From a virus (taxonomy: Duplodnaviria; Caudoviricetes), in the IMG/VR virus record IMGVR_UViG_3300027754_000185, positions 1 through 42,228 of that record: 42,228 bases of DNA; one strand, given 5' to 3'. A program made the translations under genes and the position numbers. A model generated the notes under the pieces. That model made no database searches. It had not been told where the DNA came from and saw nothing but the letters and a program-made list of their open reading frames with translations. Within the stretch, counting starts at the first letter, position 1, and each line of letters starts with the position of its first letter. Of this stretch, positions 4,742 through 41,473 are shown in pieces.

Positions 4742-7651
4742 ATGTTTGATGATCGAATTGGTAACCTGCAAAAGATGCTGGCTAGGATGGGGCCAGAAGG
4801 CAGGCAAAGATATGCCGCAGAGCATTCAGACGATCCTATTGCTGTGTCAATGGCGTTGTTTGTAAACAATATTGCCAAAGAAATTAAAGAAGGCAAACGG
4901 GGTGAGCCTGAGATGCCAGCCCCGGTAGTGCAGCAGGCTATTCAAGCCATGAACCAGCCAAGAATGCCACAGGGTATGCCCCCACAAGGTATGCCACCAC
5001 AGGGTCAACCACAGGGTCAACCACAGGGTCAGCCACAAGCCCCGCAGCAACAAGCACCGCAGGCTATGCCACCCCAAATGGCAGCAAACGGTGGCTACAT
5101 GGACTCTCAACTGCCCGAAGAGATGGGCATAGGCGCTCTACCCGAACGCAGCCTGTCTGGCATGGCTGATGGTGGGATAGTTGGGTATGCGGAGAAAGGG
5201 TTAGTTAAACCTAAAGAAAAGAAGCAAGCGTCTTTTGATAACGCTTTAGACGTAGAAGGTATAAAAGATCCAAGGCAACGAGCATTTCTTAAAGCTTTGC
5301 ATGGGCAAGAGTCCAACAGTGGGCAAAACACCACGACTTCAAATCGTGGGGCTGTAGGAGGTATGCAAATTCTTCCGGGTACATTTAAACAAGTTGCCGA
5401 TAAAAACATGGATATTAATGATCCATTTGACAATATGCGTGCGGGTATTCGGTATGGAATGAAGGGATATAACGCTGCTGGTGGCGATCCTGTATTGGCT
5501 GGAGCATATTACTATGGTGGCCCCGGTGGGATGCGTGCTTTGGCACAGGGGACTGCGCGTTCAGATCCAGAGAACCCCAAAGCCCCCAACACACTTGAGT
5601 ATGGACAAAGCATTGCCCAAAGAATGGAAAGGAACCTTCCCACAGAAATTCAAATAGCAAAAGCGCAGGCAGCATCCAAGCCCAAAACTGTTGCTCAAAG
5701 GCTAACGGAAGCTCTTCCAATTGGAACTGCTTATGCCGAAACACCCGCAGCACCCGCAGCACCAGCGTCAGCGCCTGTAGCAGCAGCACCAGCAGCGCCA
5801 AGAGAATCCATAGAAGACAGAATAAGAAAAACTCTGCTTGCTCCAGTAGACACTAAACCATTTACTGAAGTGCCTCGGGCTATGGCTCAAGGCTTGGGTT
5901 CCCAAGTTGCTGGTCTTGTTGGGGGTGTTGCTGGCGCAGTTATGCCGGGAAAAGAAGGGCAAGGTGCTGAAGCAGCAAAACGCGCTGAACAATATGTTGG
6001 AAATATAGGAGGAGGTTCCAACCCAACTTCAGAATCAAGTAAAAGAATACTAGATGCTCTTGGGTATTTGCCAAATAAATTCTCACAATATGTATCAAAA
6101 CCTGTTGGAGAAGCAATAGATAAGGCTACGGGTTCCACCACTGCTGGAGATATAGCAACAAGGATTTCAGATTTATTGCCAGCATTTGTACCGGGTGGTC
6201 GCGGAGGAAAACCAAAATTAAAACCCGCAGAGGCAGCGCCTGTACCAGCGGCAGCACCTGTACCAGCACCAACGCCAGCAGTACGTACCGTTCCTTTGCA
6301 AAAACAAGTAGCCGCAGGAAATCCACCTGCTGTTAAACCCCCTGCTGCTCAACCTCCTGTTGTTACACCCCGTCCAGAAGGGTTACAAAGAATAAATGAA
6401 GCTAATAAAAGAAATGCAGAAGCAAAACTAGCAGAAGAACAAGCAGCAGCAGCAAAAGCAGGAGCACCACCACCTCCTAATTTAACGCCTAACCAAAAAG
6501 TTGTTCCTGCACCTAAAGTTGACGTTGAAGGTGGTTTACCTTCCCTAATTAATCCTGAAGCAGCAGCATTTAAAGCAGAAGCTGTAGCTAAAGCACAAGC
6601 TAGAGCAGCAGAAAGAACAGCAGCGGCAAAGGCAACAGAAAAACCTGTTGCAGTTGAACCTATAGCAGCGGCAACAGACGCAGTCAAAGCAGCAGAAGCA
6701 GCAAAAGCAGCAGATGCACAAGTAGCCGCAGGATCTAGGGCAGCATTACAAATACGACCAGAACCATTAAACTTTCCTAGACCTTCAGTTGAAGGTGCAG
6801 GTGCAGTGGGAGCAGGTGCAGCAGCAACTCAAGGGGCTAATAATGCCGCTGAAGAAGATAGTCCAAATAGTAATATGAGTTTTAGCGAACAAATGCAGGA
6901 GTATGGCAGAGGAAGAAGGCTTGCAGAAAATCCACAAACTTATGAATTTACTAATGGTAGAGAATCTGGAGATGACACAATTCAGTTTCCATCAATCACT
7001 CCAGCAATAGCAGAAACTGCTGTTGCTCTTGCCAAAGATGAAATACCTAAGAAAGAGCAAAGTGGATTTGGCTACGAAGATCTGATGATGTTTGGTTTAA
7101 ATTTAATGGCAGGTCAATCTTCAAATGCTTTAACAAATGTTGGTACTGCGGGTATTGCTGCATTAACTGCTAGACAAGCAAGGGCAAAAGCAGAAGCTGA
7201 TAAACGTAAATCTGAAGCTGAAGCTTTGCGTGATACAGCATATGGTGAATATTACAAAGATAAAATTGCTCAAGGCCCAGAAGAAAGAAGACTTGCTGCT
7301 GAAGATAAAAAACTTGCTGCTGAAGATAGACGTACAAGAATTGCAAACGAAACACAAGACAGAGCAAATGCTTTGGCAAGACAAAGAGAAGCGGATCAAG
7401 TAACTAGACAAGCAAAAGCAGATGACGCTTTAAAAGATAGTAAAGAATACAACACAGCTTTAATGGAAGCACAAATTGCAAGATTAACTTTTGATAAGAT
7501 TTCAAATCCTACTCAAGAACAAAAAGACAAATTTTTGCGTTCACAAGAAATACCAAGAATGATGAAAAGAGAAGCTTATAAAGGTTTTGGTATTAATCCT
7601 CCTAAGTTAAACACTAATTCTGCTGGGTGGAATATAGCTCCCGCTCCTTAA
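4742..7651 (+). CDS. Virion ejection protein with soluble lytic transglycosylase (SLT) domain
   Basis: SLT motifs QES...GAVGGMQILPGT...NMRAGIRY...AYYYGGPG at about 5290-5530. PQG(M/Q) repeats, Ala/Pro-rich linkers, coiled-coil C-terminus. SD AAGGA. Confidence 0.8.
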   Translation: MFDDRIGNLQKMLARMGPEGRQRYAAEHSDDPIAVSMALFVNNIAKEIKEGKRGEPEMPAPVVQQAIQAMNQPRMPQGMPPQGMPPQGQPQGQPQGQPQAPQQQAPQAMPPQMAANGGYMDSQLPEEMGIGALPERSLSGMADGGIVGYAEKGLVKPKEKKQASFDNALDVEGIKDPRQRAFLKALHGQESNSGQNTTTSNRGAVGGMQILPGTFKQVADKNMDINDPFDNMRAGIRYGMKGYNAAGGDPVLAGAYYYGGPGGMRALAQGTARSDPENPKAPNTLEYGQSIAQRMERNLPTEIQIAKAQAASKPKTVAQRLTEALPIGTAYAETPAAPAAPASAPVAAAPAAPRESIEDRIRKTLLAPVDTKPFTEVPRAMAQGLGSQVAGLVGGVAGAVMPGKEGQGAEAAKRAEQYVGNIGGGSNPTSESSKRILDALGYLPNKFSQYVSKPVGEAIDKATGSTTAGDIATRISDLLPAFVPGGRGGKPKLKPAEAAPVPAAAPVPAPTPAVRTVPLQKQVAAGNPPAVKPPAAQPPVVTPRPEGLQRINEANKRNAEAKLAEEQAAAAKAGAPPPPNLTPNQKVVPAPKVDVEGGLPSLINPEAAAFKAEAVAKAQARAAERTAAAKATEKPVAVEPIAAATDAVKAAEAAKAADAQVAAGSRAALQIRPEPLNFPRPSVEGAGAVGAGAAATQGANNAAEEDSPNSNMSFSEQMQEYGRGRRLAENPQTYEFTNGRESGDDTIQFPSITPAIAETAVALAKDEIPKKEQSGFGYEDLMMFGLNLMAGQSSNALTNVGTAGIAALTARQARAKAEADKRKSEAEALRDTAYGEYYKDKIAQGPEERRLAAEDKKLAAEDRRTRIANETQDRANALARQREADQVTRQAKADDALKDSKEYNTALMEAQIARLTFDKISNPTQEQKDKFLRSQEIPRMMKREAYKGFGINPPKLNTNSAGWNIAPAP

Positions 7652-7659
7652 TAAAAATT

Positions 7660-10600
7660 ATGCCTAATTTTAGAGTTACTTCACCTGAAGGTAAAGCTTA
7701 TATAGTTACCGCCCCTGAAGGCGCAACTGAAGAAGAAATCCTTAGTTACGCTCAAAATAATTTAAATACAGAAACAAAAGTTGCTGCACCAACTACAGCA
7801 GCAATCCCAGAACGTACCTATGGTGAGGTTGCTAAAGACGTTGGTGCTGCCGTTGCCACTGGTCTAGGTGGTCTTGGACAATTCCCCGGTCAACTGTATG
7901 GACTTGCCACTGGTGATTTTAGTGATACAGGTCTGTATGGCAAAGCCAAAGAACTTGAAAAATACGGTGAGTCTTTAAAATCACCGGGTCTTGTTGCCAG
8001 AGAAAAGGCTAGTCAAGCAAGAATTGCTGAAGCTGAAAAAGAAGGTCAAGTATCTTCATTTTTTACCGCTATCAAAGAAATTATCACTGACCCTGTTCAG
8101 CTTCCTAATTTTTTAATATCTCAATCTTTACAGTCAATCCCTTCTATTGCGGCTGCATTAGTGCCGCTGGTTGGCCCTGCTGCATCTGCTGAAATTAAAG
8201 CATTACAAATTGCAGCCAAAACTGCAACCAGTGCAGCAGCTAGGTCAATTGCTGAAAAAGAACTAAAAGACTATGTTGCTGATGTTGCTATAAAAACTGG
8301 CACTAGACAGGCAATTGGAACTGGCGCTGTTCAGCAAGGTGCTGACATTGGCACTGGTGCTTATGAAGACATCTACAAAAAATTAATAAGCCAAAACGTT
8401 CCAGAAGACCAAGCGGCAGAGAGGGCTTTGGGGCTTGCTAGGGCGTCTGGGGCATCAGGTGCTGTCATCTCATTGCTGGCGCAAAAGCTTCCCGGCGCTC
8501 GGGTGCTTGAGGAAAGACTTGCTGGGATAAGGTTTGGTTCTCCCGGTGGTGTTGGAGGAAACATTGCAGGACGACTAGCTAGTGGTGTTGGTGTTGGTCT
8601 CAAAGAAGGTTTGACAGAGATTCCAGAGGAAGTTGGTGGGAAATTTTCCCAAAACCTTGCTATGCAGCAAGTTGATCCAACTCAAGCCCTTGCAGAAGGA
8701 TTGGGAGCCACAGGTGGACAAGCTTTCATAGGTGGCTTTGGTTTAGGCACGGTGATCGGCTCCCTAACCAATGGAGACTCAGCAAGAGTAGCTGAAGAGA
8801 AAAGAAGCATTGAGCAAGCAAAACTGCAAACTCAAAAAGAACAAGCTTTAGAACAAGCTTTAAAACAACAGAACCTAACAAAAACACAGCTTGGAATTAC
8901 AGAAGGACAACAGCTTGGATTGCCAGCCCCAGATGAATTGTTTAAACAAACAGTCAATCCGTTGTTTAACCCTTTTGGAAACTACAGCGCAGCAGATTTA
9001 GGCATCAATCCAGAGGTGGATGCTTATGTAAAGCAACACCGTCAACTCACCGGCAAGCCAAACATTGAGTCTTATTCGATAGAAGACATACAAGATGCAA
9101 TGCCCGGTACAAACACTGTCGCTGAAAAAGCTGCAATAGACAGTTTTTTAACAAAAAAAACAGGCTATACACGCGAGGTTACCTATACCCCACAAGACAT
9201 TCAAAATGTAGCTGCACAGAAAAACATTGAAACCAAAACAAAAGGTTTTGATGATTTCTTGACAAGAACAACTGGCATCAGCAATGTGGCAGAAATGTCA
9301 CAGCCACAGCTTCATGCTGCGTTTACAGCATTGGCCCAGTTACCTAAAAGCCCAGATCTTCAAATTCTTCCGCAGGGCACAAATGCCACAAGGTTCACTG
9401 AGGATCAGTACAAAAAATCCATTGAGAGCTTAAAAGCAGTTGGCAACAACCTCTCTAGGGAAGATGTTTTAAACAAGATCTACGATCAAATCAAGGTTCC
9501 TTATGCAGAGCCTGTTGATCCAATTGCTGTTAACAAGGCTCCAAACGCAGAAGCTGAACAACGCAACAAAACATATTTTGAAAGCTTGCAGCTTAAAAAT
9601 GCAGAGTCAATTCTAAGCAAAGCATTGAGAGAAAACGACCTTGAAACAGTCAAGGTTCCAAAATTTGATGTCATTGCACCAGATGGATCTGTCACTGTAT
9701 CTCCATTGACCCGTGAATCTGCTGAAAGAATTGCAGCACAGACTGAAGGTTTTACAGTCAAAGAATCTTCAGTAGAAAAAATTGCTGTTGTAGATCAAAG
9801 CGTTCTGCCTAAAGGATTTGACATCCAGCAGCAATCGTTTAAACAAGATGGTGTGCCGGGTGGCTACCAGATTAAAGCTGGCAATGTTTTAATTTCTCCA
9901 ACAGCATTTGCCACTGAAGAAGAAGCAACTAACAAAGTTAAAAACTACGAAGCTGTTAGAGCAAATCAAATTGAGGCTATAGATAAACAGCTTACAAAAC
10001 TAGAGGCAGAAAAAACCAAAGGTCAAAACGAACTTGATGCAATGGAAGTTTCTGGAAGTTCTTCGACCCCAGCATACAGAGTTGCATCTGCTGCCTTTGA
10101 CAATCAGGTTAGAGGCATTGACACCAAGGTTGTAGGTTTAAACAAACAGAAAGAATTGCTTGCAGTTCCTTTGCAAATTATCCCAACAGGTTCTGCAATT
10201 CGTTCAGGGTTTACAGTCTTTGAACAAGGCATTCCCAGAGCAACTTTGCCTACTAAGCAGGCAGCAGAAGAGCACATCATTGCCAATGCCTCTGACGAGA
10301 CGCTTAAAAACATCTCGACATCCCCAACGCCTAACCGTCTTCGGAATAAAGCAAATGAGGAAATCAATCGCAGGGCTGGGAAAGTTGAACCCGGCATAAG
10401 GGTTGCCAAATCCCCAGAGCTTGAGAAACAAGCTGATGTAGAAAACCAAGCTCAAATGACAAAGCTTGAAGAAGCTTTAAAACCAATACTTGCCAAGTTT
10501 GGTTTAAACACCACCAAGCTGAAGGTGGCTAAAGAGATAGATGGTGGTAAGGCAGAAGCATCCTATGTTGGCATTCAGGATTTAATTAACATAGCTTTTG

Positions 10601-13600
10601 ATGCGGTCAATCCTGTTAGGGCTTTAAGACATGAATCTGTCCATGCTTTGAAAGAACTTGGGTTCTTTACAGACGGGCAATGGAAAGCTTTGGTAAATCA
10701 AGCCAATACCAAATGGATTAACAAATATCTTAAACAAAAAAATGTAAGCGGAAATCCATTGGCTGCGGGTGAAGAGTCCCGCTATGAAGCCTACATGAAA
10801 GCTTATGATGGCAATCAAGAAGCAATCATTGAAGAAGCCATTGCAGATGCTTTTGCAGATTTTGATGTAAACGGTGCTCCAGCAGGATTCATGGCTGCAT
10901 TGCTTACCAAGATTCAGAACTTCTTCAAAGCATTGCTGAACGCTTTAAACGGTGCAGGATTCCAAACCGCAGAAGATGTGTTTGGTAAGGTTGAGCGTGG
11001 TGAGTTACGTGGTACTAAAGAAGCTAAAAAAATAAACAAAATTGACGAGAGAAAAAGTTTAAAAGCAGGGTTCCGTGTTCCATTGTCTACAGTTGATTTA
11101 ATGGAAAGTGATGCATTAGTATCCAGAAAAGAATTGAATTTAAAGGTTGAAAAAGAGGAAGATGAACGAGCGGGTCAGTTAAACAACGTTCGTGAAATTG
11201 CTGTTTCTTTAAACAACCAGACAGTTCGTCAATTTGGAAAGATGGATCGCAATAATCTTACTGAAGAAGATGCTGTAAAAATTTCTGAAGCTATGGCAGA
11301 CGAGGTTCTGTACCAGCTTGACACAACTTCTACAACAGGAACTGGGCTAGGCTGGTACTCAAACAATTACCCAAATGCGGTAAAACGTTTATCAACAAAA
11401 TTCCCAGAGTTAAAAACTAACCGACATGCACGGGCTGTGTTTACAGCATTAGTGGCAATTACCTCCAACGGAGAAAGAGTTAAAAAGAACATTTCCAACG
11501 CTATCAATCTTTATTCCAAGCTGCGGATGGGTAAACCATTGGTGGCTATGGGAAATCGTAGACCAACTGCTTTGCAAAATAATCTAAAAACATTAGAGGA
11601 TTTGCTTATAGAACATGGTGAAAACTTTGAACAGCATTTGTTAAAAGAAACTACAGTTTCTGAAATGAATGTTCAGTTGCGTGCAAGAGGTGAAAAACCA
11701 GACGCAAGCTACTTGGCAGAAACCACAGTCCCAACAGCAGCCATTTATTTTGGGCCAAAGCTAGGTGCTTTCTATGCCAATCTTTCTGGGTCTGAAGGCT
11801 ATTTAACAATGGATCTGTGGTGGACACGTACCGTCAATCGTATGCGTGGTTTGTTAATTCCTATGGCAACTGCTGCATCCATTGGAAAATTCAGATCAAT
11901 GATGGAAAGGCCAAATTTAACCCGTGATGAAATTGTTTCGGCTGCTATTCCTTTTAGAGATAAGTATCTGGAGTATGGGTACAACACTGATTTGGAACAT
12001 TTAACAAAATCCAAAGAACCTGCTAAAAAGTTTTTAAAAGCTGCTTGGTTTAAACGTGCTGAAAAAGTTGCTGGTGACAGTTACGATCAGTTGTTGTACG
12101 AACACAACTTAGAAAAGATGGCAAACACCATCTACAAGAACGAATACGAAATGTTGGCAGAAGCTCCATTCACTGCCTCTGACAGAAAATTTATGTACGA
12201 TGTTGGGAGAAAGACACAGTCCCTATTGCGTAATCAGGGAGTTAGTCTTACACTGGCAGACATACAGGCAGCATTGTGGTACTACGAGAAGCGCCTGTAC
12301 CAAAAACTAAGCGGAAGGAAAGCAGATGATATCGGATACGAAGAAGCAATCATCGCCCAAGCCAATGAGGGTACTGGACGAGCAAGACCCAGTGTGGTCT
12401 TCATTGGAGGGGTTGACGGTGGGTCTGTCGCCACAGGAGAGATCGAAAGTTCTGAGGGACTTCGTGAAGAGCCTACCGCTGAAGAATCCAAAGTAGAAGG
12501 AACAAATGAAAACATTTCACCTAGAGAACCTACCGTTCGACCCAGCGATAGAAGCGGGGAAGGACGCAGTGCGGCAAATGGAACAAAACTCTCCCTCCGA
12601 GAAGACATACGATCCTATAGAGGACGCAATGAAATGCAATCCCGGACTCACACGGAAAAAAGCATTGGAGATGGCAGAAGCGTTCGGGTTCTAGGCGCAA
12701 AGCCTATAGCTGAGTTTACCCCTACCGATTCGTTTAAGGGGATTGTCAACGGGTACGGTCATCAGTCTCCTGTGTTTTATGAGATCAGCGGCAAAGATGC
12801 TGCGATCTATGAACAGGCAATACAGGATTCAAAAGATGCCAGCCCATACGGTGCTGCTGTCTATGTCTATCCCGTAGAAGAATACGCAGACATGCGCCTC
12901 TTTATGACAGAGGATGGAAAATCAGGTGTTGCCCTTAAAGGTGATGACATTGTTTCTGTCTTTTCTGGGCCACCTCACAAAGGTTCTGTCAACTCTTCAA
13001 TGCAACTTGCTGTACAAGAAGGCGGCAGAAGGCTTGATGCTTTTGCAACTGTTCTTCCATCGCTTTACAACGCCAACGGCTTTCAAGTTGTAGGCCGCAT
13101 GAAATGGAACGAAGATTACAAGCCAGAAAACTGGGACAAGAAGACATTCTCTGATTTTAATAATGGTGAGCCTGATGTTGTTTACATGGCATACGATCCA
13201 GATGACAACAGGACAGTATTTGAAAATCCGGGTGAATATTTTGATGACCCTGATAAGCTTTCACAAGCGCAAAAGGATGCTGTAAACAAAAATGTTAAGT
13301 ACTCCCTTGGTAAAGGAATCGTACTTGGAACAAAACAAGAAGGATCTATTTCTTTCAACGGAACCCACTACGGAAAAATAAAAACAGACAATCTAAATTC
13401 CTCTAAATACGGCACTGGTTTACAAGGATCAGAATCCCGTAGACTAAGCGGGTACTGGGATGACCGCATCAAGAAGCGGGTCTATTTCTACGTTCCTAAG
13501 TATGACGGGACAATGCCGCTGCCAGAATCTGGTGTAGGTGGTTATGTTTACACACAAAAGTTTGACAACATAGCCAGCCCTGCGGTTATGAGCAAGCTCT

Positions 13601-16600
13601 ATGCAGAAGCCCGTGGTGATGCCAACACTATGGAAACCTTAGTTGTTGAAGCTGGCTACGATGGCTATGCTGCTCCTTCAATGGGAATGATGGTTATTCT
13701 TAACCATGATGTGCCTGTTAACTACGAAGGAACCAAGGCTGAGTTTGATGCTAAGAAACCTAAGTTAAGCCTACGTGCAGCACCTAATACACCTGAATTT
13801 AAACGCTGGTTTGGCAATAGCAAGGTTGTGGATGAGAATGGTAAGCCGATGGTGATGTATCACGGCACAATTACAGACATTACAAGTTTTGAACCCCGCG
13901 CACAAGGTGGAGGTAATGCAATTTGGTTAACTCCTGATCCTGAGTTTGCATCAAGTTTTGCCGTAGATAGAGAGGGTAGGCTTGATGAGGGTGCTGCTGA
14001 AGGCGGCAATGTTATGCCAGTGTATGTAAGAGCTACAAACACATTTGATTATGAAAAACCAGAACATCTAAAAATATTGCAGGATTATCTGCTAGAAGAA
14101 TACCCGAGTGGACAAATAAAAAATACTGCTGGTGCAAACACAAAAATCCGCAATGGAATTGCAATGTTGCGAGACAAAGATGATGGCATGGCATTTTTTC
14201 TGCAATCAGAATCAGTATTTGATGCAGTGCAAGATTTAGGTTTTGACAGCATGTCTGAGCGGTTTGAGGATGTTAACAACTTAATTGTTTTTAAACCCAC
14301 TCAAATAAAATCAGCCATAGGAAACACAGGTGCTTACGATGCTACAAACCCAGACATCCGCTATAGCTTGAAGAACACAGCTTTCCACAGTGGCGATCTT
14401 GGCTACGGCAAGGACACTGTGCTTGGCAGAATGAGCGGAAGAAGCACAGGCCACTTTGGAACGGGAACGTATTTTACTAGCACAGAGCCAGAAGAATCAC
14501 GTTTTAATCCTAGGGCAGACAGGCCCAAGCATATGGTCAGCTTAGATGGTTACAAGTTGGCAAGACCTCGCACAAAAGATAACGCAAAAATATTGCACAA
14601 AGGGCTGGAGCAAGTTAATGATTTATCATCGTATTTAAATGGTGTTGAGAAGATTGATGGCGAAACTCGAAAGCGAGTAGATAAGCTATCTGATGATGCT
14701 GCATTTAATGTTTTTATATCCATCCTACCGGGTCAAGAAATCAGTGAAATAAAACAGATGACATTAAAGGCGGCTATTGCCGCCACCAAAGAATACGAAT
14801 CTGTTGCACATAAAACAACATATGCGGAAACTGCGGCGACAAGGTTAATGCGTGCATTGGGTTATGACGGCGTTGATGTGCGCCATCTGCCTGATTACGA
14901 CAATACACTCTATGGCACAGTTGTCTATGGAAAAACGTTTAAAGAACGTGCGCCACAAGAGAAATACAGCCTTACTCAAAAGATCAATTCCTTACCAAAC
15001 AGTGCCAAGATACTTGACAGCGTCAATAAGATCGTTTCTGTACAGGAGCAAACAGGCCATGTAGAAAGAATGGTTGCTGCGTTTTCACCAAAGAGCAGAT
15101 CAAATTTCAGAGCAGCTTTCATTGACCGGTACAACCAGATTGGTGTAAACAGCAAGCAGGTTGCTAAACTCAAGGGTGAGAATTGGCTCTTGGCAGATGT
15201 AAGCGCAGAAGCTGCTGCCAACATGTCTGACCTAGCAACTGGTGTCTCTGCATCTGCATTAGGTGTTGGTCAAGGTAAAGGCGGTATACCTGTGTATGCC
15301 AATGGGTTTACCAAAGTTTTCAATGATGATGGCAAGATCAAGGGTGCTGTTGAGATCTTCTCAACGTTAGCCAAGTACAACAACCCAGAAATTTACAGGC
15401 TGTATCAATGGTGGGCAGGTTCTCTTCGCGGAAAACGATTGCTTGACAATGGAAGAGAACAGAACTACACAAAAGAGGATATCAAGCTTGCAGAAGAACT
15501 GTTGGTTTCTTTCCCTGAATTTGCTCAAGTGCAGAAAGAATGGATTGTTTACAACGATGGCTTGGTCAAATATGCTGTAGACACAGGTGTTCTGACAAAA
15601 GAAGCTGGTGAAAAGTTTAGAGAGTACGGGGACTACATTCCGTTTTACCGCCAGATAGATGGTGAACAGACTGTTGGGCCAAACATCTTTAGCGGTATCT
15701 CTGGTGTCAAAGGCCCGAAAGCATTGAAGGGTAGTGAAGCCCCTCTGGCTGATTTCCTAGAAACCATTGTCAGAAACACTCAGTCCATCATTGAGTCTGG
15801 CATGAAGAACGTTGCTGCCGAAAGAGCCATCAGAGATGCAATAATTCTTGGACAGGCAGAAAAGCTAGACTTCCAACCCAAAGAGTTTAAATCTGATGTT
15901 GTGAGCTATCAGGAAAAAGGCAAGACAGTCTATTACAAGCTGGCAGATCCAGCTTTATATGAGGCAATGAAAGGTTTAAACATACCTGATATGCCTTGGC
16001 TCGGCATTCTTTCCGCACCAGCAAATCTTCTTAGGACTCTGGTTACCAAAGATCCGGGGTTCATGCTTGTCAACTTGATGAGAGACTCAGTCTCTGCATG
16101 GGTAACATCAGGCTCTAGCATGACCCCCATCGTGGATACCATGAATCAATTTGTTAAAACGCTTGCAGGGAAATCCCCAGAAGCTGAAGCATTGATGATG
16201 TCTGGTGTCCTTGGTGGTTATGATTTTGCAAGCAATGTTGAGTCTGGTGGTAAGGATCTAGCTAAATATTTGCGTAAAAAGACAAATACAAAAACCACAA
16301 CAGAATTTTTAGCAACACCGTTTACAAGCATTTGGGAAGCCTTGGAAAAAGGAACAACAGCTTCTGATGCAGCAACCCGTGCAGCTATTTATCGCAGGGT
16401 TATGGATGAAACTGGCAATGAAGCAGAAGCAATCTACAGAGCCTTGGAGGTAATGAACTTCAACCGCAAAGGAAACTCTGCTGTTGTTAGGATATTGACT
16501 GCCGTTGTTCCATTTCTAAACGCCCGAATTCAAGGTCTTGATGTTCTGTACAGAGCAAGCTTTGGTGAAATGGCTAGTAAAGATGCCAAAGCAATTCAAA

Positions 16601-17556
16601 AAGCATTTATCATTCGTGGTTTGTTCTTGATGGGCATGACTGCTTTATATTACGCAGCAACTTCTGATGATGATGAGTACAAAAAACAAGAGCAAGAAGT
16701 TCGGGATAATAATTGGCTGATCCCTTCTCTTGGTATAAAGATACCCATTCCTTTTGAGATTGGTGTTTTGTTTAAAGTGATTCCTGAGAGGATCATGGCC
16801 TATCATTATGGAACTGACACTGGCAAAGATCTTCTTGAATCAGCAGCCAGAAACATTGTTAGCACATTTGCATTTAACCCTGTCCCACAAGCAATAATTC
16901 CTTTTGTAGAAACAGCAACAAACCATTCTTTCTTTACAGGCAGAGAAATTGTTCCTCGTGAATTGAAAGATGTAAGTCCAGAGTTTCAAACCAATGCAGG
17001 AACATCTGGGTTGGCTAAAAGAATTAGCAGTGGTTTGGCTGATATTCTGCCAAGTGGATTAAAAGAAAAGGCTCTGTCCCCAATTCAAATAGACCATATT
17101 GTGAATGGCTACACCGGGACACTGGGCATGTATGCCTCTAGTATGCTCAACTCAGTCTTTGACAGATCCACAGATCCAACCAGAGCAGATCTAAGACTTG
17201 AGCAAATGCCTGTTCTGCGTAGGATATTGATTGACAAAGAAGCTAGAGGCAATGCCACTGCCTACTATGATTTAAAGCACAGCACAGACACAATGGTCAG
17301 AACCATTAATCTGTTGGAAAAAACCCAGAACTTTGAAGAATTAGGTAAATACCAACAAGAAAATTTAAACCTTCTTGCAACACAAGATTACATGAAGGAT
17401 TTGGCAAAAATGATGAAAGAACTGAACGAATATTCTGTGATGATTAAGTCATCACAAATGGATGGAGCCTCAAAGAGAGATGCTTTGTTAGCTATCAGCC
17501 AAGCACAGAATAACGTTACAGCAAATATTAAAACAATTAGGAAGATGCTTAATTAA
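7660..17556 (+). CDS. Giant polyvalent virion protein (~3300 aa): HExxH metallopeptidase, HhH-GPD glycosylase-like, GNAT-like, three ADP-ribosyltransferase-like modules, LPD38-like C-terminus
   Basis: ATG 7660 is preferred over GTG 7627. HESVH at 10630-10644 plus EEAIAD; GWY...GPKLGAFYANL...TMDLW...QAALW; DIVSVF...LDAF...LY..NGF; FKRWFGNSKVVDENGKPMVMYHGT...QIKSAIGN (ART-PolyVal-like); IKIPIPFEIG...SFFTGREIVP...SPIQIDH (LPD38-like). Confidence 0.85.
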   Translation: MPNFRVTSPEGKAYIVTAPEGATEEEILSYAQNNLNTETKVAAPTTAAIPERTYGEVAKDVGAAVATGLGGLGQFPGQLYGLATGDFSDTGLYGKAKELEKYGESLKSPGLVAREKASQARIAEAEKEGQVSSFFTAIKEIITDPVQLPNFLISQSLQSIPSIAAALVPLVGPAASAEIKALQIAAKTATSAAARSIAEKELKDYVADVAIKTGTRQAIGTGAVQQGADIGTGAYEDIYKKLISQNVPEDQAAERALGLARASGASGAVISLLAQKLPGARVLEERLAGIRFGSPGGVGGNIAGRLASGVGVGLKEGLTEIPEEVGGKFSQNLAMQQVDPTQALAEGLGATGGQAFIGGFGLGTVIGSLTNGDSARVAEEKRSIEQAKLQTQKEQALEQALKQQNLTKTQLGITEGQQLGLPAPDELFKQTVNPLFNPFGNYSAADLGINPEVDAYVKQHRQLTGKPNIESYSIEDIQDAMPGTNTVAEKAAIDSFLTKKTGYTREVTYTPQDIQNVAAQKNIETKTKGFDDFLTRTTGISNVAEMSQPQLHAAFTALAQLPKSPDLQILPQGTNATRFTEDQYKKSIESLKAVGNNLSREDVLNKIYDQIKVPYAEPVDPIAVNKAPNAEAEQRNKTYFESLQLKNAESILSKALRENDLETVKVPKFDVIAPDGSVTVSPLTRESAERIAAQTEGFTVKESSVEKIAVVDQSVLPKGFDIQQQSFKQDGVPGGYQIKAGNVLISPTAFATEEEATNKVKNYEAVRANQIEAIDKQLTKLEAEKTKGQNELDAMEVSGSSSTPAYRVASAAFDNQVRGIDTKVVGLNKQKELLAVPLQIIPTGSAIRSGFTVFEQGIPRATLPTKQAAEEHIIANASDETLKNISTSPTPNRLRNKANEEINRRAGKVEPGIRVAKSPELEKQADVENQAQMTKLEEALKPILAKFGLNTTKLKVAKEIDGGKAEASYVGIQDLINIAFDAVNPVRALRHESVHALKELGFFTDGQWKALVNQANTKWINKYLKQKNVSGNPLAAGEESRYEAYMKAYDGNQEAIIEEAIADAFADFDVNGAPAGFMAALLTKIQNFFKALLNALNGAGFQTAEDVFGKVERGELRGTKEAKKINKIDERKSLKAGFRVPLSTVDLMESDALVSRKELNLKVEKEEDERAGQLNNVREIAVSLNNQTVRQFGKMDRNNLTEEDAVKISEAMADEVLYQLDTTSTTGTGLGWYSNNYPNAVKRLSTKFPELKTNRHARAVFTALVAITSNGERVKKNISNAINLYSKLRMGKPLVAMGNRRPTALQNNLKTLEDLLIEHGENFEQHLLKETTVSEMNVQLRARGEKPDASYLAETTVPTAAIYFGPKLGAFYANLSGSEGYLTMDLWWTRTVNRMRGLLIPMATAASIGKFRSMMERPNLTRDEIVSAAIPFRDKYLEYGYNTDLEHLTKSKEPAKKFLKAAWFKRAEKVAGDSYDQLLYEHNLEKMANTIYKNEYEMLAEAPFTASDRKFMYDVGRKTQSLLRNQGVSLTLADIQAALWYYEKRLYQKLSGRKADDIGYEEAIIAQANEGTGRARPSVVFIGGVDGGSVATGEIESSEGLREEPTAEESKVEGTNENISPREPTVRPSDRSGEGRSAANGTKLSLREDIRSYRGRNEMQSRTHTEKSIGDGRSVRVLGAKPIAEFTPTDSFKGIVNGYGHQSPVFYEISGKDAAIYEQAIQDSKDASPYGAAVYVYPVEEYADMRLFMTEDGKSGVALKGDDIVSVFSGPPHKGSVNSSMQLAVQEGGRRLDAFATVLPSLYNANGFQVVGRMKWNEDYKPENWDKKTFSDFNNGEPDVVYMAYDPDDNRTVFENPGEYFDDPDKLSQAQKDAVNKNVKYSLGKGIVLGTKQEGSISFNGTHYGKIKTDNLNSSKYGTGLQGSESRRLSGYWDDRIKKRVYFYVPKYDGTMPLPESGVGGYVYTQKFDNIASPAVMSKLYAEARGDANTMETLVVEAGYDGYAAPSMGMMVILNHDVPVNYEGTKAEFDAKKPKLSLRAAPNTPEFKRWFGNSKVVDENGKPMVMYHGTITDITSFEPRAQGGGNAIWLTPDPEFASSFAVDREGRLDEGAAEGGNVMPVYVRATNTFDYEKPEHLKILQDYLLEEYPSGQIKNTAGANTKIRNGIAMLRDKDDGMAFFLQSESVFDAVQDLGFDSMSERFEDVNNLIVFKPTQIKSAIGNTGAYDATNPDIRYSLKNTAFHSGDLGYGKDTVLGRMSGRSTGHFGTGTYFTSTEPEESRFNPRADRPKHMVSLDGYKLARPRTKDNAKILHKGLEQVNDLSSYLNGVEKIDGETRKRVDKLSDDAAFNVFISILPGQEISEIKQMTLKAAIAATKEYESVAHKTTYAETAATRLMRALGYDGVDVRHLPDYDNTLYGTVVYGKTFKERAPQEKYSLTQKINSLPNSAKILDSVNKIVSVQEQTGHVERMVAAFSPKSRSNFRAAFIDRYNQIGVNSKQVAKLKGENWLLADVSAEAAANMSDLATGVSASALGVGQGKGGIPVYANGFTKVFNDDGKIKGAVEIFSTLAKYNNPEIYRLYQWWAGSLRGKRLLDNGREQNYTKEDIKLAEELLVSFPEFAQVQKEWIVYNDGLVKYAVDTGVLTKEAGEKFREYGDYIPFYRQIDGEQTVGPNIFSGISGVKGPKALKGSEAPLADFLETIVRNTQSIIESGMKNVAAERAIRDAIILGQAEKLDFQPKEFKSDVVSYQEKGKTVYYKLADPALYEAMKGLNIPDMPWLGILSAPANLLRTLVTKDPGFMLVNLMRDSVSAWVTSGSSMTPIVDTMNQFVKTLAGKSPEAEALMMSGVLGGYDFASNVESGGKDLAKYLRKKTNTKTTTEFLATPFTSIWEALEKGTTASDAATRAAIYRRVMDETGNEAEAIYRALEVMNFNRKGNSAVVRILTAVVPFLNARIQGLDVLYRASFGEMASKDAKAIQKAFIIRGLFLMGMTALYYAATSDDDEYKKQEQEVRDNNWLIPSLGIKIPIPFEIGVLFKVIPERIMAYHYGTDTGKDLLESAARNIVSTFAFNPVPQAIIPFVETATNHSFFTGREIVPRELKDVSPEFQTNAGTSGLAKRISSGLADILPSGLKEKALSPIQIDHIVNGYTGTLGMYASSMLNSVFDRSTDPTRADLRLEQMPVLRRILIDKEARGNATAYYDLKHSTDTMVRTINLLEKTQNFEELGKYQQENLNLLATQDYMKDLAKMMKELNEYSVMIKSSQMDGASKRDALLAISQAQNNVTANIKTIRKMLN
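12326..12496 (+). CDS. Putative nested 56-aa gene in the +1 frame of the giant protein
   Basis: GGAAGG SD, then ATG 12326 and TAG 12494-12496. MISDTKKQSSPKPMRVLDEQDPVWSSLEGLTVGLSPQERSKVLRDFVKSLPLKNPK. Not in the ORF track (<60 aa). Confidence 0.5.
   Translation: MISDTKKQSSPKPMRVLDEQDPVWSSLEGLTVGLSPQERSKVLRDFVKSLPLKNPK
12506..12694 (+). CDS. Putative nested 62-aa gene in the +1 frame of the giant protein
   Basis: AAGGA SD just upstream, 9 nt after the previous nested stop. Protein-like helical sequence ending DPIEDAMKCNPGLTRKKALEMAEAFGF. Confidence 0.6.
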   Translation: MKTFHLENLPFDPAIEAGKDAVRQMEQNSPSEKTYDPIEDAMKCNPGLTRKKALEMAEAFGF

Positions 17557-26088: not shown

Positions 26089-27870
26089 ATGTTAGCTTTA
26101 AATTTCCTTGAGCGTTTTCATTTCAATGAGAGCGCAAGGGTTAGCTGTCCCTTTTGCTCTTCAGAACGCAGCAAGACAACAGCCAAAGACCTCAGTCTGA
26201 TCAAAAAGCCTGATGGTGCAATCCTTTACCACTGCCATCACTGTCAGGTCAGTGGCTCATACCAACCAACTAAGAAGGAGAAACAATTGAGTGCCATTAA
26301 TTTTGATTTTGATTTTGAACTTGAAAAAACAGAAACAACCAAGATCCATTCTGTCCCTAATTCAACCATCAAAAAACCATTGGAGCAGAAGCATTACAAC
26401 TGGCTTCAAAGCAGAGGAATCAGCAAAGCAACAGCAGACAAGATGAAGCTGTTCTCTCAGGAAAAATTCTTCCAAAAACTCAGCAAGACCAGCGATAGCA
26501 TAGGGTTCCCCTACTACAGGGACGGAGCATTCGTTGCAGCAAAATACAGATCATTCCCGGAGAAAGCGTTTACACAAGAAGAAGGTGGGGCACATGATTT
26601 CTTTGGTCTCGACAACATAGTCAAGGGCAAGCCAATCATCATTGTTGAAGGAGAAATTGATTGCCTGACATTGATTGAGGCAGGGGTTGAGAACGTTGTG
26701 TCAGTGCCTGCGGGTGCTCCCATCAAGGTATCCGATGGCAAGGTCAATGCATCTGAGGATAAGAAGTTTAGCTTTATCTGGAATGCAGTCGCCATACTTG
26801 ATGCAGCCCCTTATGTTGTGTTGGCTACAGACCAAGACGCACCGGGTCAAGCCTTGGCTGAAGAGTTGGCAAGAAGGATAGGTAAAGACAAGTGCAGGCT
26901 CTCAAAGTTTGATGGTAAAGATCTTAATGAAGTTTGGCTGGGAATCATCAATGACCCGTCACGGACAGATGACCCGACACGGAATAGGTCAGAGGCAGTC
27001 CTCAAGGTCAAGGAGATTGTTGAGAAGTCTGTGGCGTATCCAATTGCAGGACTCAGTGACGCTTCAGTCTATGTAGATCGTTTAAACAACTTATTTAACA
27101 AGGGAACCGGCAAGGGGTTCAGCACCGGCTTTGATGCCGTCGATAAGATTTACACAGTGGCCCCGAGTCAGATGACTGTGGTGACAGGATACCCAAGCAG
27201 TGGCAAGAGCAACTTTGTGGATCAGATGATGGTCAACTTGGCTAAGTCAAATGATTGGAAGTTTGCCATCTGCTCGTTTGAGAACCAGCCTGAGATTCAC
27301 ATCAGCAGATTGATGGAGATTTACACAAAGAAAAGATTCTTTGAGGGCACTGACCGAATGAATGACACCGAGAAAGATCGTGCATTCAAATGGGTCACTG
27401 ATCACTTCATCTTCATTGACACCAACAGTGAGGAACCATCGACCATTGAATCAATCCTCAGTAGAACCAAGATTGCCATCAAAAGAATGGGTGTACGTGG
27501 GTTGGTGATTGACCCTTACAACTACATCGATTTGCAGAGAAAATCCACTGAGACCGATGCGATCAGCGACATGCTGACTAAGGTGCAGAAGTTTGTCAAG
27601 GGCTACGACTTGCATTGCTGGTTTGTTGCTCACCCTGCAAAGATCAATCGAACCGGGGTAGATCAGCCAAGGCCAGATGGCATGAGCATCAGCGGGTCAA
27701 TGTCTTGGTGGGCCAAAACAGACAACGGAATCACAGTGCATCGCAAGGATCAGGTGGTAGAGATTGCAGTGTGGAAATGCCGATACCGCTGGGTTGGAAT
27801 GCAGGGAGAGACGACCCTGCTCTACAACAAGACATCTGGAACCTACAGCAGCAACAACGATCATTTCTGA
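26089..27870 (+). CDS. T7 gp4/Twinkle-like primase-helicase
   Basis: Zn finger CPFC...CHHC; TOPRIM VEGEIDCL and ATDQD; Walker A GYPSSGKS; Walker B LVIDP; VAHP.K. Confidence 0.92.
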   Translation: MLALNFLERFHFNESARVSCPFCSSERSKTTAKDLSLIKKPDGAILYHCHHCQVSGSYQPTKKEKQLSAINFDFDFELEKTETTKIHSVPNSTIKKPLEQKHYNWLQSRGISKATADKMKLFSQEKFFQKLSKTSDSIGFPYYRDGAFVAAKYRSFPEKAFTQEEGGAHDFFGLDNIVKGKPIIIVEGEIDCLTLIEAGVENVVSVPAGAPIKVSDGKVNASEDKKFSFIWNAVAILDAAPYVVLATDQDAPGQALAEELARRIGKDKCRLSKFDGKDLNEVWLGIINDPSRTDDPTRNRSEAVLKVKEIVEKSVAYPIAGLSDASVYVDRLNNLFNKGTGKGFSTGFDAVDKIYTVAPSQMTVVTGYPSSGKSNFVDQMMVNLAKSNDWKFAICSFENQPEIHISRLMEIYTKKRFFEGTDRMNDTEKDRAFKWVTDHFIFIDTNSEEPSTIESILSRTKIAIKRMGVRGLVIDPYNYIDLQRKSTETDAISDMLTKVQKFVKGYDLHCWFVAHPAKINRTGVDQPRPDGMSISGSMSWWAKTDNGITVHRKDQVVEIAVWKCRYRWVGMQGETTLLYNKTSGTYSSNNDHF

Positions 27871-30447: not shown

Positions 30448-32186
<1,739 letters not shown>

Positions 32187-32190
<4 letters not shown>

Positions 32191-33638
32191 AGTTCACCTC
32201 CGATTAAATTTTCGTTGATTGACGCCATGCGGATAGCCTCAAGGGCCAGCGCGGACTCAGGGGGCTGCTTGGCAGCAATAGTGGTATCCCATGCCTCGCG
32301 CACAGTCAGCAAGTCCAGTGCGCGTACAAAGGCAATCAGTTGGCGCAGGGAGGGGGCATCCACAATGTCACCAGAATCAACCTTGGCCCGTGCCAGATTG
32401 ATAGACTTGACAACGTGCCGCGCCAGTTTTTCGGTGCAGTTGGTATGGCGCACTAGTGCTCTCACCTCGGTATCTTCCGGAAGATATTTAAACGATATCA
32501 CTCTAGCAAAACGGTCCAACAGGCTGCTGTTCATAGACCGGGTTCCGGCATAGCGGCCTGAATCGTCACCATTCCCTAGGGTATTGTCCGCGCCCATCAC
32601 CAAGACGCCAGCAGCGCGAGACCAGACCCGCCCCCCAATATTTACATGGCTATTAGGTTCCAACAGGGAGTTAAGGACTGCCAGATTAGCCGGGTCTGCA
32701 TTCGATATCTCATCTAGCAGAATCACCGCGCCGGGGGTTACAAAGGCTCTCAGGAAGTCGCCCGGTACAAATTCAGTTGCGCCATTGACCAGACCAACAG
32801 CACCGACAAAATCCTCCGGGCTTGTATGCTTGGTAAAGTTTATGCGTGTAAACGCACGTTCTGTCTTCGCTGCAAACTGTTTGACTGCCTCCGATTTCCC
32901 GGTAGATTTTGGACCGCCTAGCCAAATATTTTCCCCGGTCCTCTGCGCCAGCACAAAGTGCCTGATCAGGGTCTCGGTCCATATGTAATGGGGGTCCACT
33001 GGAGGGGAATCAGGATACCCCCACAAGTCAACAGTCAGGGTCTGACCCTGACGGTCCATCACCAGTACATCGAATACCCACAAGCAGGTTTCTTGCGCCA
33101 CTGGTGCAGCCAGCACCGTCATCACCGCCGCTTTGACTGTATCAGTCGCCCCCGCCAGTGCATCATTGATGGGCCTGATGGCAGCAGCCACTGCACTCGC
33201 AACAGCAGCAGAGACCGCTGCCGGGTCCACCGCCGGGACTCTCTGAGCAGCCAGACTAGCAGCCTCTGCCCTTGATGCCACTGCACCAGCAGCATCAATT
33301 GCACTGGTCAAATCAGTCGCAAGCTTGTCTATCCTCAGATTAAGGGTAGTCACGCCATGCGCCACTGCACGGGCGGCTTGTATTGCTTGCGCGGCTTGAC
33401 CAGCAGCATCATCAGCCTTTTGCTTGGCGACAGATGCATCAGCAGCAGCCCCGGCAGCACTCGCAGATGATGCCCCGCCAGTGCATACTGCCCTGACCTT
33501 CGCGGCATCAAATCCCTCACGGTCCAACAAGACCGAATCAAGGGCTTTAGACCCTTGTGGTGCAAACCCTGCCGATTTAACGGCCTCAATCAGCATGGTA
33601 GTGGGGAGGGCCAGCAGCCCGGAAAGACGGGCGCTCAT
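32187..33638 (-). CDS. MoxR/CobS-like AAA+ ATPase
   Basis: Walker A GPKSTGKS, Walker B ILLDE, YAGT..MN.SLLDRF, SLRQL. Ala-rich coiled-coil N-terminus. Confidence 0.9.
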
Positions 33639-40861: not shown

Positions 40862-41052
40862 TCCAAAATTTTGTGCGGGTACTGCGCGAAAAGATTCGTA
40901 CCGACATGAACAACTACGCCGATGACTTGGCTGGGGGTGCTTGTCGCAATTTCGAAGAGTACCAAAAACTCTGCGGGACTATTCAGGGTCTAGCTCTCGC
41001 AGAGCGTTATCTAATTGACCTTGCTGACAAAGCAGAAAGAGCCGATGAGTAA
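40858..41052 (+). CDS. Small conserved head-region protein
   Basis: 64 aa, EEYQKLCGTIQGL, coupled to the portal stop. Confidence 0.75.
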   Translation: MIQNFVRVLREKIRTDMNNYADDLAGGACRNFEEYQKLCGTIQGLALAERYLIDLADKAERADE

Positions 41053-41473
41053 TCTGATTCTTCCACCCGGCATTAGTTTGCCAAAAACTATCCGACCTAG
41101 GGAAAACCCTAATGAAGATGCGTCCCAAGAAGAGAAAGCCACACAGTTGCCCGACCCCACAGGTTGGAAATTGTTGTGCGTTGTGCCTGATGTAGAAAAA
41201 ACCTTTGAGAATTCCAGCATTGTCAAAGCCGATCCCTACATGCGACAAGAGGAACACGCCACCACCGTGCTCTTTGTTGTAAAAATTGGCCCTGATGCGT
41301 ACAAAGATCAGACCAAGTTCCCCGGTGGTGCGTGGTGTAAGGCTGGAGATTTTGTTTTGGTCAGGACGTATTCTGGTACGCGCTTCAAAATCTACGGCAA
41401 AGAGTTCCGTTTACTAAATGATGACCAAGTAGACGCTGTTGTTCAGGATCCGCGCGGTCTATCGCGTGCATAA
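41045..41473 (+). CDS. groES: GroES-like co-chaperonin
   Basis: P.GWKLL...VVKIGPDAY...WCKAGDFVL...YSGTRFKIYGKEFRLLNDDQV.AVV. Confidence 0.85.
   Translation: MSNLILPPGISLPKTIRPRENPNEDASQEEKATQLPDPTGWKLLCVVPDVEKTFENSSIVKADPYMRQEEHATTVLFVVKIGPDAYKDQTKFPGGAWCKAGDFVLVRTYSGTRFKIYGKEFRLLNDDQVDAVVQDPRGLSRA

Follow-up and report, generated by a model that had tools for sequence, protein, structure and literature searches.

Two small genes nested in the +1 frame of a giant phage polyvalent protein gene as putative partners of its enzyme modules

Giant virion proteins that carry several enzymes raise the question of how the cell makes such a protein unharmed before it is packaged, and the locus described here poses the further question of whether the linker between two of these enzymes encodes part of the answer in another frame. 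The window (the whole stretch of DNA analysed, 42,228 nucleotides of IMG/VR record IMGVR_UViG_3300027754_000185) is a 42-kb tailed-phage genome with terminase, portal, primase-helicase and Sak genes. An initial annotation, made from the letters of the window, had placed two small +1 ORFs with spaced SD sequences between a glycosylase-like and a GNAT-like module of its giant protein, and had suggested that they encode cognate inhibitors or chaperones of these modules.

The giant protein gene and its nested reading frames

The gene of the giant protein is the third in a block, following those of a DNA-ejection protein (PHROG) and an SLT protein. Only ART-PolyVal and LPD38 were found by profile in the giant protein, the enzymes of which sit internally. 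Being large and multidomain, combining LPD and enzyme domains and lying among virion genes, it has the makeup of a phage polyvalent protein. The LPD38 protein gp47 of phage phi24B is present in virions and has been proposed to be an ejection protein (10.64898/2026.04.10.717836), and by analogy the giant protein is likely to be delivered by the virion and injected into bacteria. Both +1 ORFs were confirmed from the sequence. The features of relevance are:

7627..17556, + strand: gene of the giant polyvalent protein, main frame, 3309 aa (ORF and domain matches)
11224..12351, + strand: HhH-GPD DNA-glycosylase-fold module, aa 1200-1575 (predicted fold and structure matches)
11758-11760, + strand: codon of the HhH Lys (Lys179), invariant in 44/44 aligned rows
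11812-11814, + strand: codon of Asp197, 18 residues past the Lys, invariant in 44/44 aligned rows
12313..12318, + strand: SD of ORF1, GGAAGG, 7 nt ahead of the ATG
12325..12693, + strand: hydrophilic main-frame linker, aa 1567-1689, open in all homologues that continue
12326..12496, + strand: ORF1, 56 aa, +1 frame, ATG start, unit paired with the glycosylase module upstream
12497..12501, + strand: SD of ORF2, AAGGA, immediately after the stop of ORF1 and 4 nt ahead of the ATG
12506..12694, + strand: ORF2, 62 aa, +1 frame, ATG start, two separable units
12515..12559, + strand: N-unit of ORF2 (ORF2-N), motif L-x-N-L-P-F-D-P-A, tracking the HYG domain 266 codons downstream
12608..12691, + strand: C-unit of ORF2 (ORF2-C), a 28-aa amphipathic helix-turn-helix pattern as predicted from sequence
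12685..13209, + strand: GNAT-fold acetyltransferase module, core 12763-13209 (predicted-structure matches)
13312..13746, + strand: 'HYG' domain, downstream of GNAT (alignment; atlas lead)
aa 2069-2236 of the giant protein: ART-PolyVal (profile match)
aa 3015-3197 of the giant protein: LPD38 (profile match)

Near-identical DNA was found in freshwater and lake metagenomes, and contigs of two other runs (X2, 11767-12717; X7, 11974-13058) bridged both ORFs without a gap, which argues that these are not an assembly artefact. Relatives from the same runs were observed to split or rejoin near the unit boundaries at approximately 12500, 12590 and 13290, with joints or loose ends at 12402-12631 of the window. 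This divergence weakly fits frequent module exchange, the contig sides being short. The RNA assemblies of four of the six runs listed contained short contigs only, one of them covering exactly 12272-12682, and are silent on strand, level and translation. No sigma-70-like promoter was found in 11800-13000, with 1.8 expected. Elsewhere in the window, a MoxR-like AAA and VWA pair (CobS/CobT-like, 30448-33638) and a GroES-like gene (41015-41473) were observed, along with an H-S-G-type domain lacking a Pfam match after ART-PolyVal (14374-14940). No SD-led +1 ORF of at least 40 aa was found in the window near ART-PolyVal or this H-S-G-type domain.

ORF1 and ORF2 are separated by 9 nt, and the first ten codons of ORF1 overlap the last helix of the glycosylase module. 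Each SD was calculated to pair with the anti-SD at -5.7 kcal/mol, 10 of the 13 ordinary genes of the phage that were checked falling between -5.4 and -9.3. The giant gene holds 138 ATGs in the +1 frame, twelve of which open at least 40 codons, and only those of ORF1 and ORF2 possess such an SD (next best -2.2). Its further +1 ORFs (e.g. 12914-13093) were set aside as by-products without an SD, as was a 108-aa ORF on the minus strand (12282-12608). No Pfam family was found for ORF1 or ORF2 at E 0.01 and no PHROGs family for either peptide, while the ESM Atlas gave no usable match for ORF2.

Conservation and selection in the +1 frame

The ATG of ORF1 was found at the same codon in all 29 unique close homologues (the window and L001-L035, duplicates dropped), with neither a stop nor a gap over 52 codons. 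Codon choice in the main frame was examined in 33 loci, consisting of these 29 and four selected for an identical ATG. The Asp codon under the ORF1 start was GAT in 32 and AAT in one (background GAT 43%), while the Gly-Arg under the SD was encoded by GGR in 31/32 loci (background 23%) and AGR in 27/27 (background 16%), choices that preserve the SD of ORF1. Retention of the ATG and SD among homologues, on which the initial annotation had been staked, is thus seen in constrained main-frame codons.

Behind the glycosylase module, a 36-codon window was open in the +1 frame in 63 of 66 unique homologues, reaching down to approximately 30% identity (L036 excluded for its lack of the anchor motif), and in the +2 frame in 5/66. 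Six +1 control windows within the module were open in 2, 11, 19, 20, 26 and 49 of 65-66. Among the 29 close homologues, the pairwise pN/pS of the glycosylase module in its main frame was 0.25. Over ORF1 codons 11-52 it was 1.46 in the main frame against 0.58 in the +1 frame, although the alignment followed the main frame, and it was 1.1 for the +2 frame over ORF1, where the most variable base was the third position of the +1 codon. Codon models on trees gave main-frame omega values of 0.08 for the glycosylase and 0.05 for the GNAT module. For the ORF1 core omega was 0.22 in +1 versus 2.7 in the main frame, for ORF2-C 0.35 versus 1.4 (12 rows) and for ORF2-N 0.2-0.3 versus 2.6-2.8, the last on 23 rows selected by motif and hence biased. 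The suggestion that the other frame is under selection was therefore borne out by omega values of 0.2-0.35 in +1 against 1.4-2.8 in the main frame, and past its first ten codons the main-frame linker was found to be without purifying selection.

The linker is also as rich in R, G, S and E as had been described, these accounting for 50% of aa 1567-1689 against 27% of the whole protein. The first base of a nested codon is the second base of a main-frame codon, and T at this position made up 0.10-0.16 under ORF2 and 0.06-0.38 elsewhere; the rarity of hydrophobic residues in the linker follows from the scarcity of T there under the nested gene.

These data are characteristic of nested out-of-frame genes, with a conserved start and ribosome binding site of their own and purifying selection in the nested frame without closure of the host frame, and judged by sequence ORF1 and ORF2 are almost certainly real and conserved genes. 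That they are instead untranslated and a side effect of linker composition or an RNA element is extremely improbable: an open +1 frame is common in coding DNA, as one of the control windows (49/66) illustrates, but such openness would account neither for the low +1 omega and the variable third +1 position nor for the retention of the sequence in L036, with its closed main frame, or the fusion of units in register, both described below.

Another possibility is that ribosomes enter the +1 frames by frameshifting, giving shorter polyprotein isoforms with C-terminal caps in cis. ORF1 begins under the last helix of its module, in many distant homologues the SD is weak and the first ATG variable, and a cap in cis would co-fold identically. 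However, the ATG is conserved and the SD codon choice kept; shifted ATGs in L045 and L187 are each preceded by a GGAGG of their own, the L187 start also having a +1 stop two codons ahead; and the ORF2 units precede their modules, so that a frameshift there would delete the partner domain. Such caps are accordingly considered very improbable.

Pairing of peptide units with enzyme modules

The labels given earlier to the flanking modules agreed with predicted structure, which returned an HhH-GPD fold and a GNAT fold. The glycosylase module was modelled alone at pLDDT 91, and the top 23 VIA matches were all HhH-GPD-type folds, the best being 3n0u (Z 11.7, rmsd 4.1, 197 aligned). Fold, HhH hairpin and the Lys-Asp pair 18 residues apart place it in the HhH-GPD superfamily, Lys179 and Asp197 being residues that we take to be catalytic as in Nth/OGG1. 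The fold matched by VIA also covers queuine salvage and base-modifying enzymes, and base excision is a putative activity of this module. Foldseek on the model gave no match at E < 0.001, with only AGOG at a probability of 0.80, and profiles of the modules found nothing of use among PDB sequences.

A profile of ORF1 (44 rows) matched 83 of 198 loci. Each of these is one of the 117 loci with the glycosylase module (34/117 were without a match), and the 81 that lack it gave no match. Co-occurrence with the adjacent domain, which the initial annotation had anticipated, was thus found for ORF1, as it was for the ORF preceding GNAT (30/32) and in the shuffled architectures described below. These loci are related and partly redundant, meaning that the counts overstate the number of independent events. 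In three of the 66 glycosylase homologues (L046, L069 and L076) the +1 frame behind the module is closed, yet Lys and Asp are retained, which argues against the peptide being necessary or an obligatory subunit. The module of L036 ends at a stop codon, and the ordinary gene that follows starts with an ORF1-like segment (hhalign E 4e-6). It was also observed that L036:1248-8565 encodes a portal-fused polyvalent protein with the glycosylase module at its end, and that the next gene continues from its ORF1-like start into Zeta-toxin-like and DUF3626 domains.

Co-folding of ORF1 with the glycosylase module in ESMFold2 gave a complex score of 0.77, the best of three controls reaching 0.37. This mark was attained by 116/157 solved complexes and 2/215 mismatched pairs, a calibration that is approximate with own alignments. 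Runs concurred in at least 89% of contacts, and the pLDDT of ORF1 was at least 76 on the module against 34 with an unrelated protein (score 0.00). The predicted interface comprises module residues 118-171, 173-182 (HhH hairpin, Lys179), 190-197 (to Asp197) and 315-325, thereby taking in residues 177-179 and 190-197 of the hairpin and the catalytic-Asp loop. The best-resolved contacts (122-127, 143-151 and 174-175) lie off the catalytic Lys and Asp. The model supports binding of ORF1 to the module and fits a blocking of the DNA cleft, occlusion not being certain.

ORF2-C is paired with the GNAT module, which begins under the ORF2 stop codon and was assigned to the superfamily by its fold (Foldseek probability 1.0; 1y9k, Z 12.6, rmsd 2.5, 129 aligned). 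An ATG-initiated +1 ORF of at least 40 aa was found to end just ahead of the GNAT core in 30/32 loci, compared with 0/32 for the +2 frame and 6/32 and 9/32 for control windows. The 32 loci are the window and 31 of 65, 18 duplicate, near-duplicate or truncated loci and 16 of a stand-alone clade having been excluded. These ORFs follow many different upstream modules and share a two-helix pattern. Embedded GNATs without ORF2-C were found in L014, L066 and L137, ORF2-C is also absent from the 16 loci of the stand-alone clade, and such stand-alone homologues indicate that ORF2-C is not an obligatory subunit. In L114, L120, L123 and L139 only a short main-frame leader precedes the nested ORF and GNAT, so nesting is retained even at the start of a gene.

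An ORF2 profile matched the cultured Limnohabitans phage DC33 (PQ492659.1; E 7e-7), which was not part of that profile and whose record annotates the giant CDS only. Two unannotated SD-led +1 ORFs were observed in DC33 (L089), at 7067-7282 (the ORF2-C homologue, positions 27781..27566 on the minus strand of the record) and 7916-8104; its record gives the taxonomy as Inoviridae although the genome measures 39 kb and has a polyvalent gene of 3125 aa.

Other arrangements near GNAT were also observed. In the minor capsid protein gene of Microbacterium phage UtzChips (L090), a 47-aa ATG-initiated +1 ORF lies between VG15 and GNAT (GNAT match at 3001); this was rejected as an ORF2-C homologue, the ORF2 profile giving no match, and is a positional analogue only. 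In Methanobrevibacter virus vir075 (L091:3666-3935), an overlapping ordinary ORF of 89 aa follows a minor capsid protein that ends in GNAT, the classical position of an immunity gene. The +1 ORFs ahead of GNAT in L109, L121 and L125 are longer (approximately 95 aa) and have a different conserved N-part, MKENHIP-x-TRENYL, which is probably the partner of the upstream domain there.

The initial annotation had counted two small genes; both exist, though ORF2 was found to consist of two separable units, of which the N-half is paired with a third domain beyond GNAT. None of 20 members of this HYG domain had a Pfam match. An atlas feature match of 0.89 to an ART-PolyVal cluster points to a likely ART-fold relative of ART-PolyVal, a weak result to be taken as a lead only. 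When scored by a matrix built from 17 of the HYG rows, the ORF2-N motif reached at least 34 in 26/29 close HYG loci (two more had a weak motif at the usual place and one locus was truncated) and in 36 of the 58 HYG rows overall, and exceeded 30 in none of the 129 loci without HYG. Among distant HYG rows, 18/19 and L116 were without the motif and only L063 had it. ORF2-N was always in the +1 frame, at 13-577 codons from HYG and with different modules in between. The proposal that module and antidote are embedded side by side holds for ORF1 and ORF2-C and does not cover ORF2-N, which can lie as far as 577 codons from its domain. Tracking at such distances, together with absence where HYG is absent, points to an action in trans.

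Units were also found to be shuffled and fused. In L002-L010, which have GNAT and no HYG in the stretch examined, ORF1 is fused straight to ORF2-C, and phages lacking both GNAT and HYG have ORF1 alone. The database protein P0019 is a single chain of ORF1, ORF2-N, another motif and ORF2-C, and other subsets of units are joined in P0015 and P0033. As far as sequence comparison can tell, the glycosylase, GNAT and ART-like modules each have one peptide unit tied to them, making three in all.

Further +1 families were noted as side observations. One SD-led family lies directly ahead of a recurring domain in L001 (7081-7245), L014 (4159), L057, L065 and L078 and behind GNAT in L002, L006, L007, L009 and L010. 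In the main frame this domain starts L-[AP]-P/A-x-[LV], followed by a GPDP/AEQYA-type region, and the window possesses neither peptide nor domain. Another family (MAxV...GQMFGGKG) lies just upstream of HYG in L015, L020-L031, L035 and L177, following a domain that ends F-H-S...D-Y-L-x-x-T-R-Y, and is fused to the ORF2-N motif in L177.

Proposed role of the nested peptides

The peptides are probably cognate binders of the modules of their own polyprotein, and it is somewhat favoured that they act as inhibitors, muting the payload enzymes in the producing cell. The inhibitor-or-chaperone reading given at the outset is supported by the pairing, the dN/dS values, the kept starts and the co-fold of ORF1. 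Two further readings of the pairing were weighed.

ORF1 and ORF2-C adjoin their modules, and linkage alone could yield such co-occurrence if the peptides were aimed at other host or phage targets and hitch-hiked with the modules as recombination cassettes. This is quite improbable, given that ORF2-N tracks HYG over 13-577 codons and disappears without it, and that the ORF1 score falls from 0.77 on its module to 0.00 (pLDDT 34) on an unrelated protein.

The peptides could instead be positive partners, i.e. chaperones, activators or packaging adaptors of their modules. Cas11d for Cas10d is an example of a positive cognate partner. Co-occurrence, selection and a predicted complex would suit any binding partner, and the predicted contacts of lowest error lie off the catalytic residues. 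Weighing against a positive role, stand-alone GNATs and three glycosylase homologues manage without peptides, the glycosylase module models well by itself and the predicted interface extends to the HhH hairpin and Asp loop; such a role is judged unlikely.

Under the inhibitor reading, the linker would be a second gene layer, with small products that attach to particular enzyme modules of the giant protein and silence them. The peptides would be translated from the same late mRNA as the giant protein, so that their dose is matched to the modules, and would be lost as the polyprotein enters the virion or unfolds during ejection, so that the enzymes are free in the next host. Later synthesis would switch the enzymes off again. 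We infer that the arrangement may have arisen when cassettes of an enzyme and its partner were spliced into the polyprotein by read-through of the small gene, the off-frame of which makes a hydrophilic linker because the first base of a codon is seldom T.

The chances are about even that this reflects a general 'shadow frame' of injected phage polyproteins, in which each payload enzyme has a short +1 antidote unit in the linkers, and the units are shuffled and fused into multivalent peptides wherever they lie. If so, natural inhibitors of glycosylases, acetyltransferases and ADP-ribosyltransferases could be catalogued by reading the +1 frame, which would also reveal which payload domains are toxic. 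The proposal offers a testable answer to the question raised at the outset, together with short candidate inhibitors for three enzyme folds and a rule that pairs them with their targets. It also suggests that the 'floppy linkers' of giant phage proteins can be unannotated genes, as the record of DC33 illustrates.

Small genes that overlap a larger gene out of frame are known from Rz1 in Rz, ComS in srfAB and E in D of phiX174, and Rz1 binds the Rz product. Those are single fixed pairs, whereas the units described here recombine and are module-specific. A small gene directly upstream of GNAT is also reminiscent of the type II GNAT toxin-antitoxin systems AtaRT and TacAT; as far as these are described, they differ in that the peptides here gave no DUF1778/RHH match and are nested in a polyprotein, and the GNAT is, among the matches listed, nearest to RimI/NAT-like enzymes and not to tRNA-acetylating toxins.

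Temperate phages encode MuF polymorphic toxins with immunity ORFs downstream of them (PMC5576092). The layout of L036, with a stop behind the module and an ORF1-like segment in the next gene, is that of a MuF toxin and its immunity gene (PMC5576092). The protein of the window is not a MuF protein, as it has no MuF domain and its enzymes are internal, while MuF proteins have an N-terminal MuF, a C-terminal toxin and a gene behind the portal. Moreover, several modules share one polyprotein here, their toxicity being putative, and the small genes lie within internal linkers in another frame, upstream or downstream of the module or far from it. The intragenic antitoxins of Rpn (RpnL/RpnS), in which a small internal product blocks the long one, share the gene-within-gene arrangement (PMC10327210). 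RpnS is in frame, equals the C-terminus of the toxin, occurs once per gene and serves host defence (PMC10327210), and the peptides described here, being out of frame (+1), one per module and in phages, lack the in-frame start of that class. By analogy, the peptides may work like MuF toxin-immunity pairs and Rpn antitoxins while being a member of neither.

With ART-PolyVal, LPD38 and a late virion context, the giant gene resembles the polyvalent proteins of PMC5512222, for which autoproteolysis has been proposed to activate inactive polyproteins, with no partner peptides in the text available (PMC5512222; 10.64898/2026.04.10.717836); neither overlapping genes nor glycosylases are mentioned in what is available of PMC5512222. 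A literature search, with subscription papers mostly outside its coverage, found no account of out-of-frame genes in the linkers of polyvalent proteins. Like effector-immunity systems, the locus has small genes genetically tied to specific enzyme modules, with exceptions, and what appears to be new is an effector-immunity-type layout in which single units pair with single modules, can follow them at a distance and fuse into multivalent peptides, together with a modelled complex.
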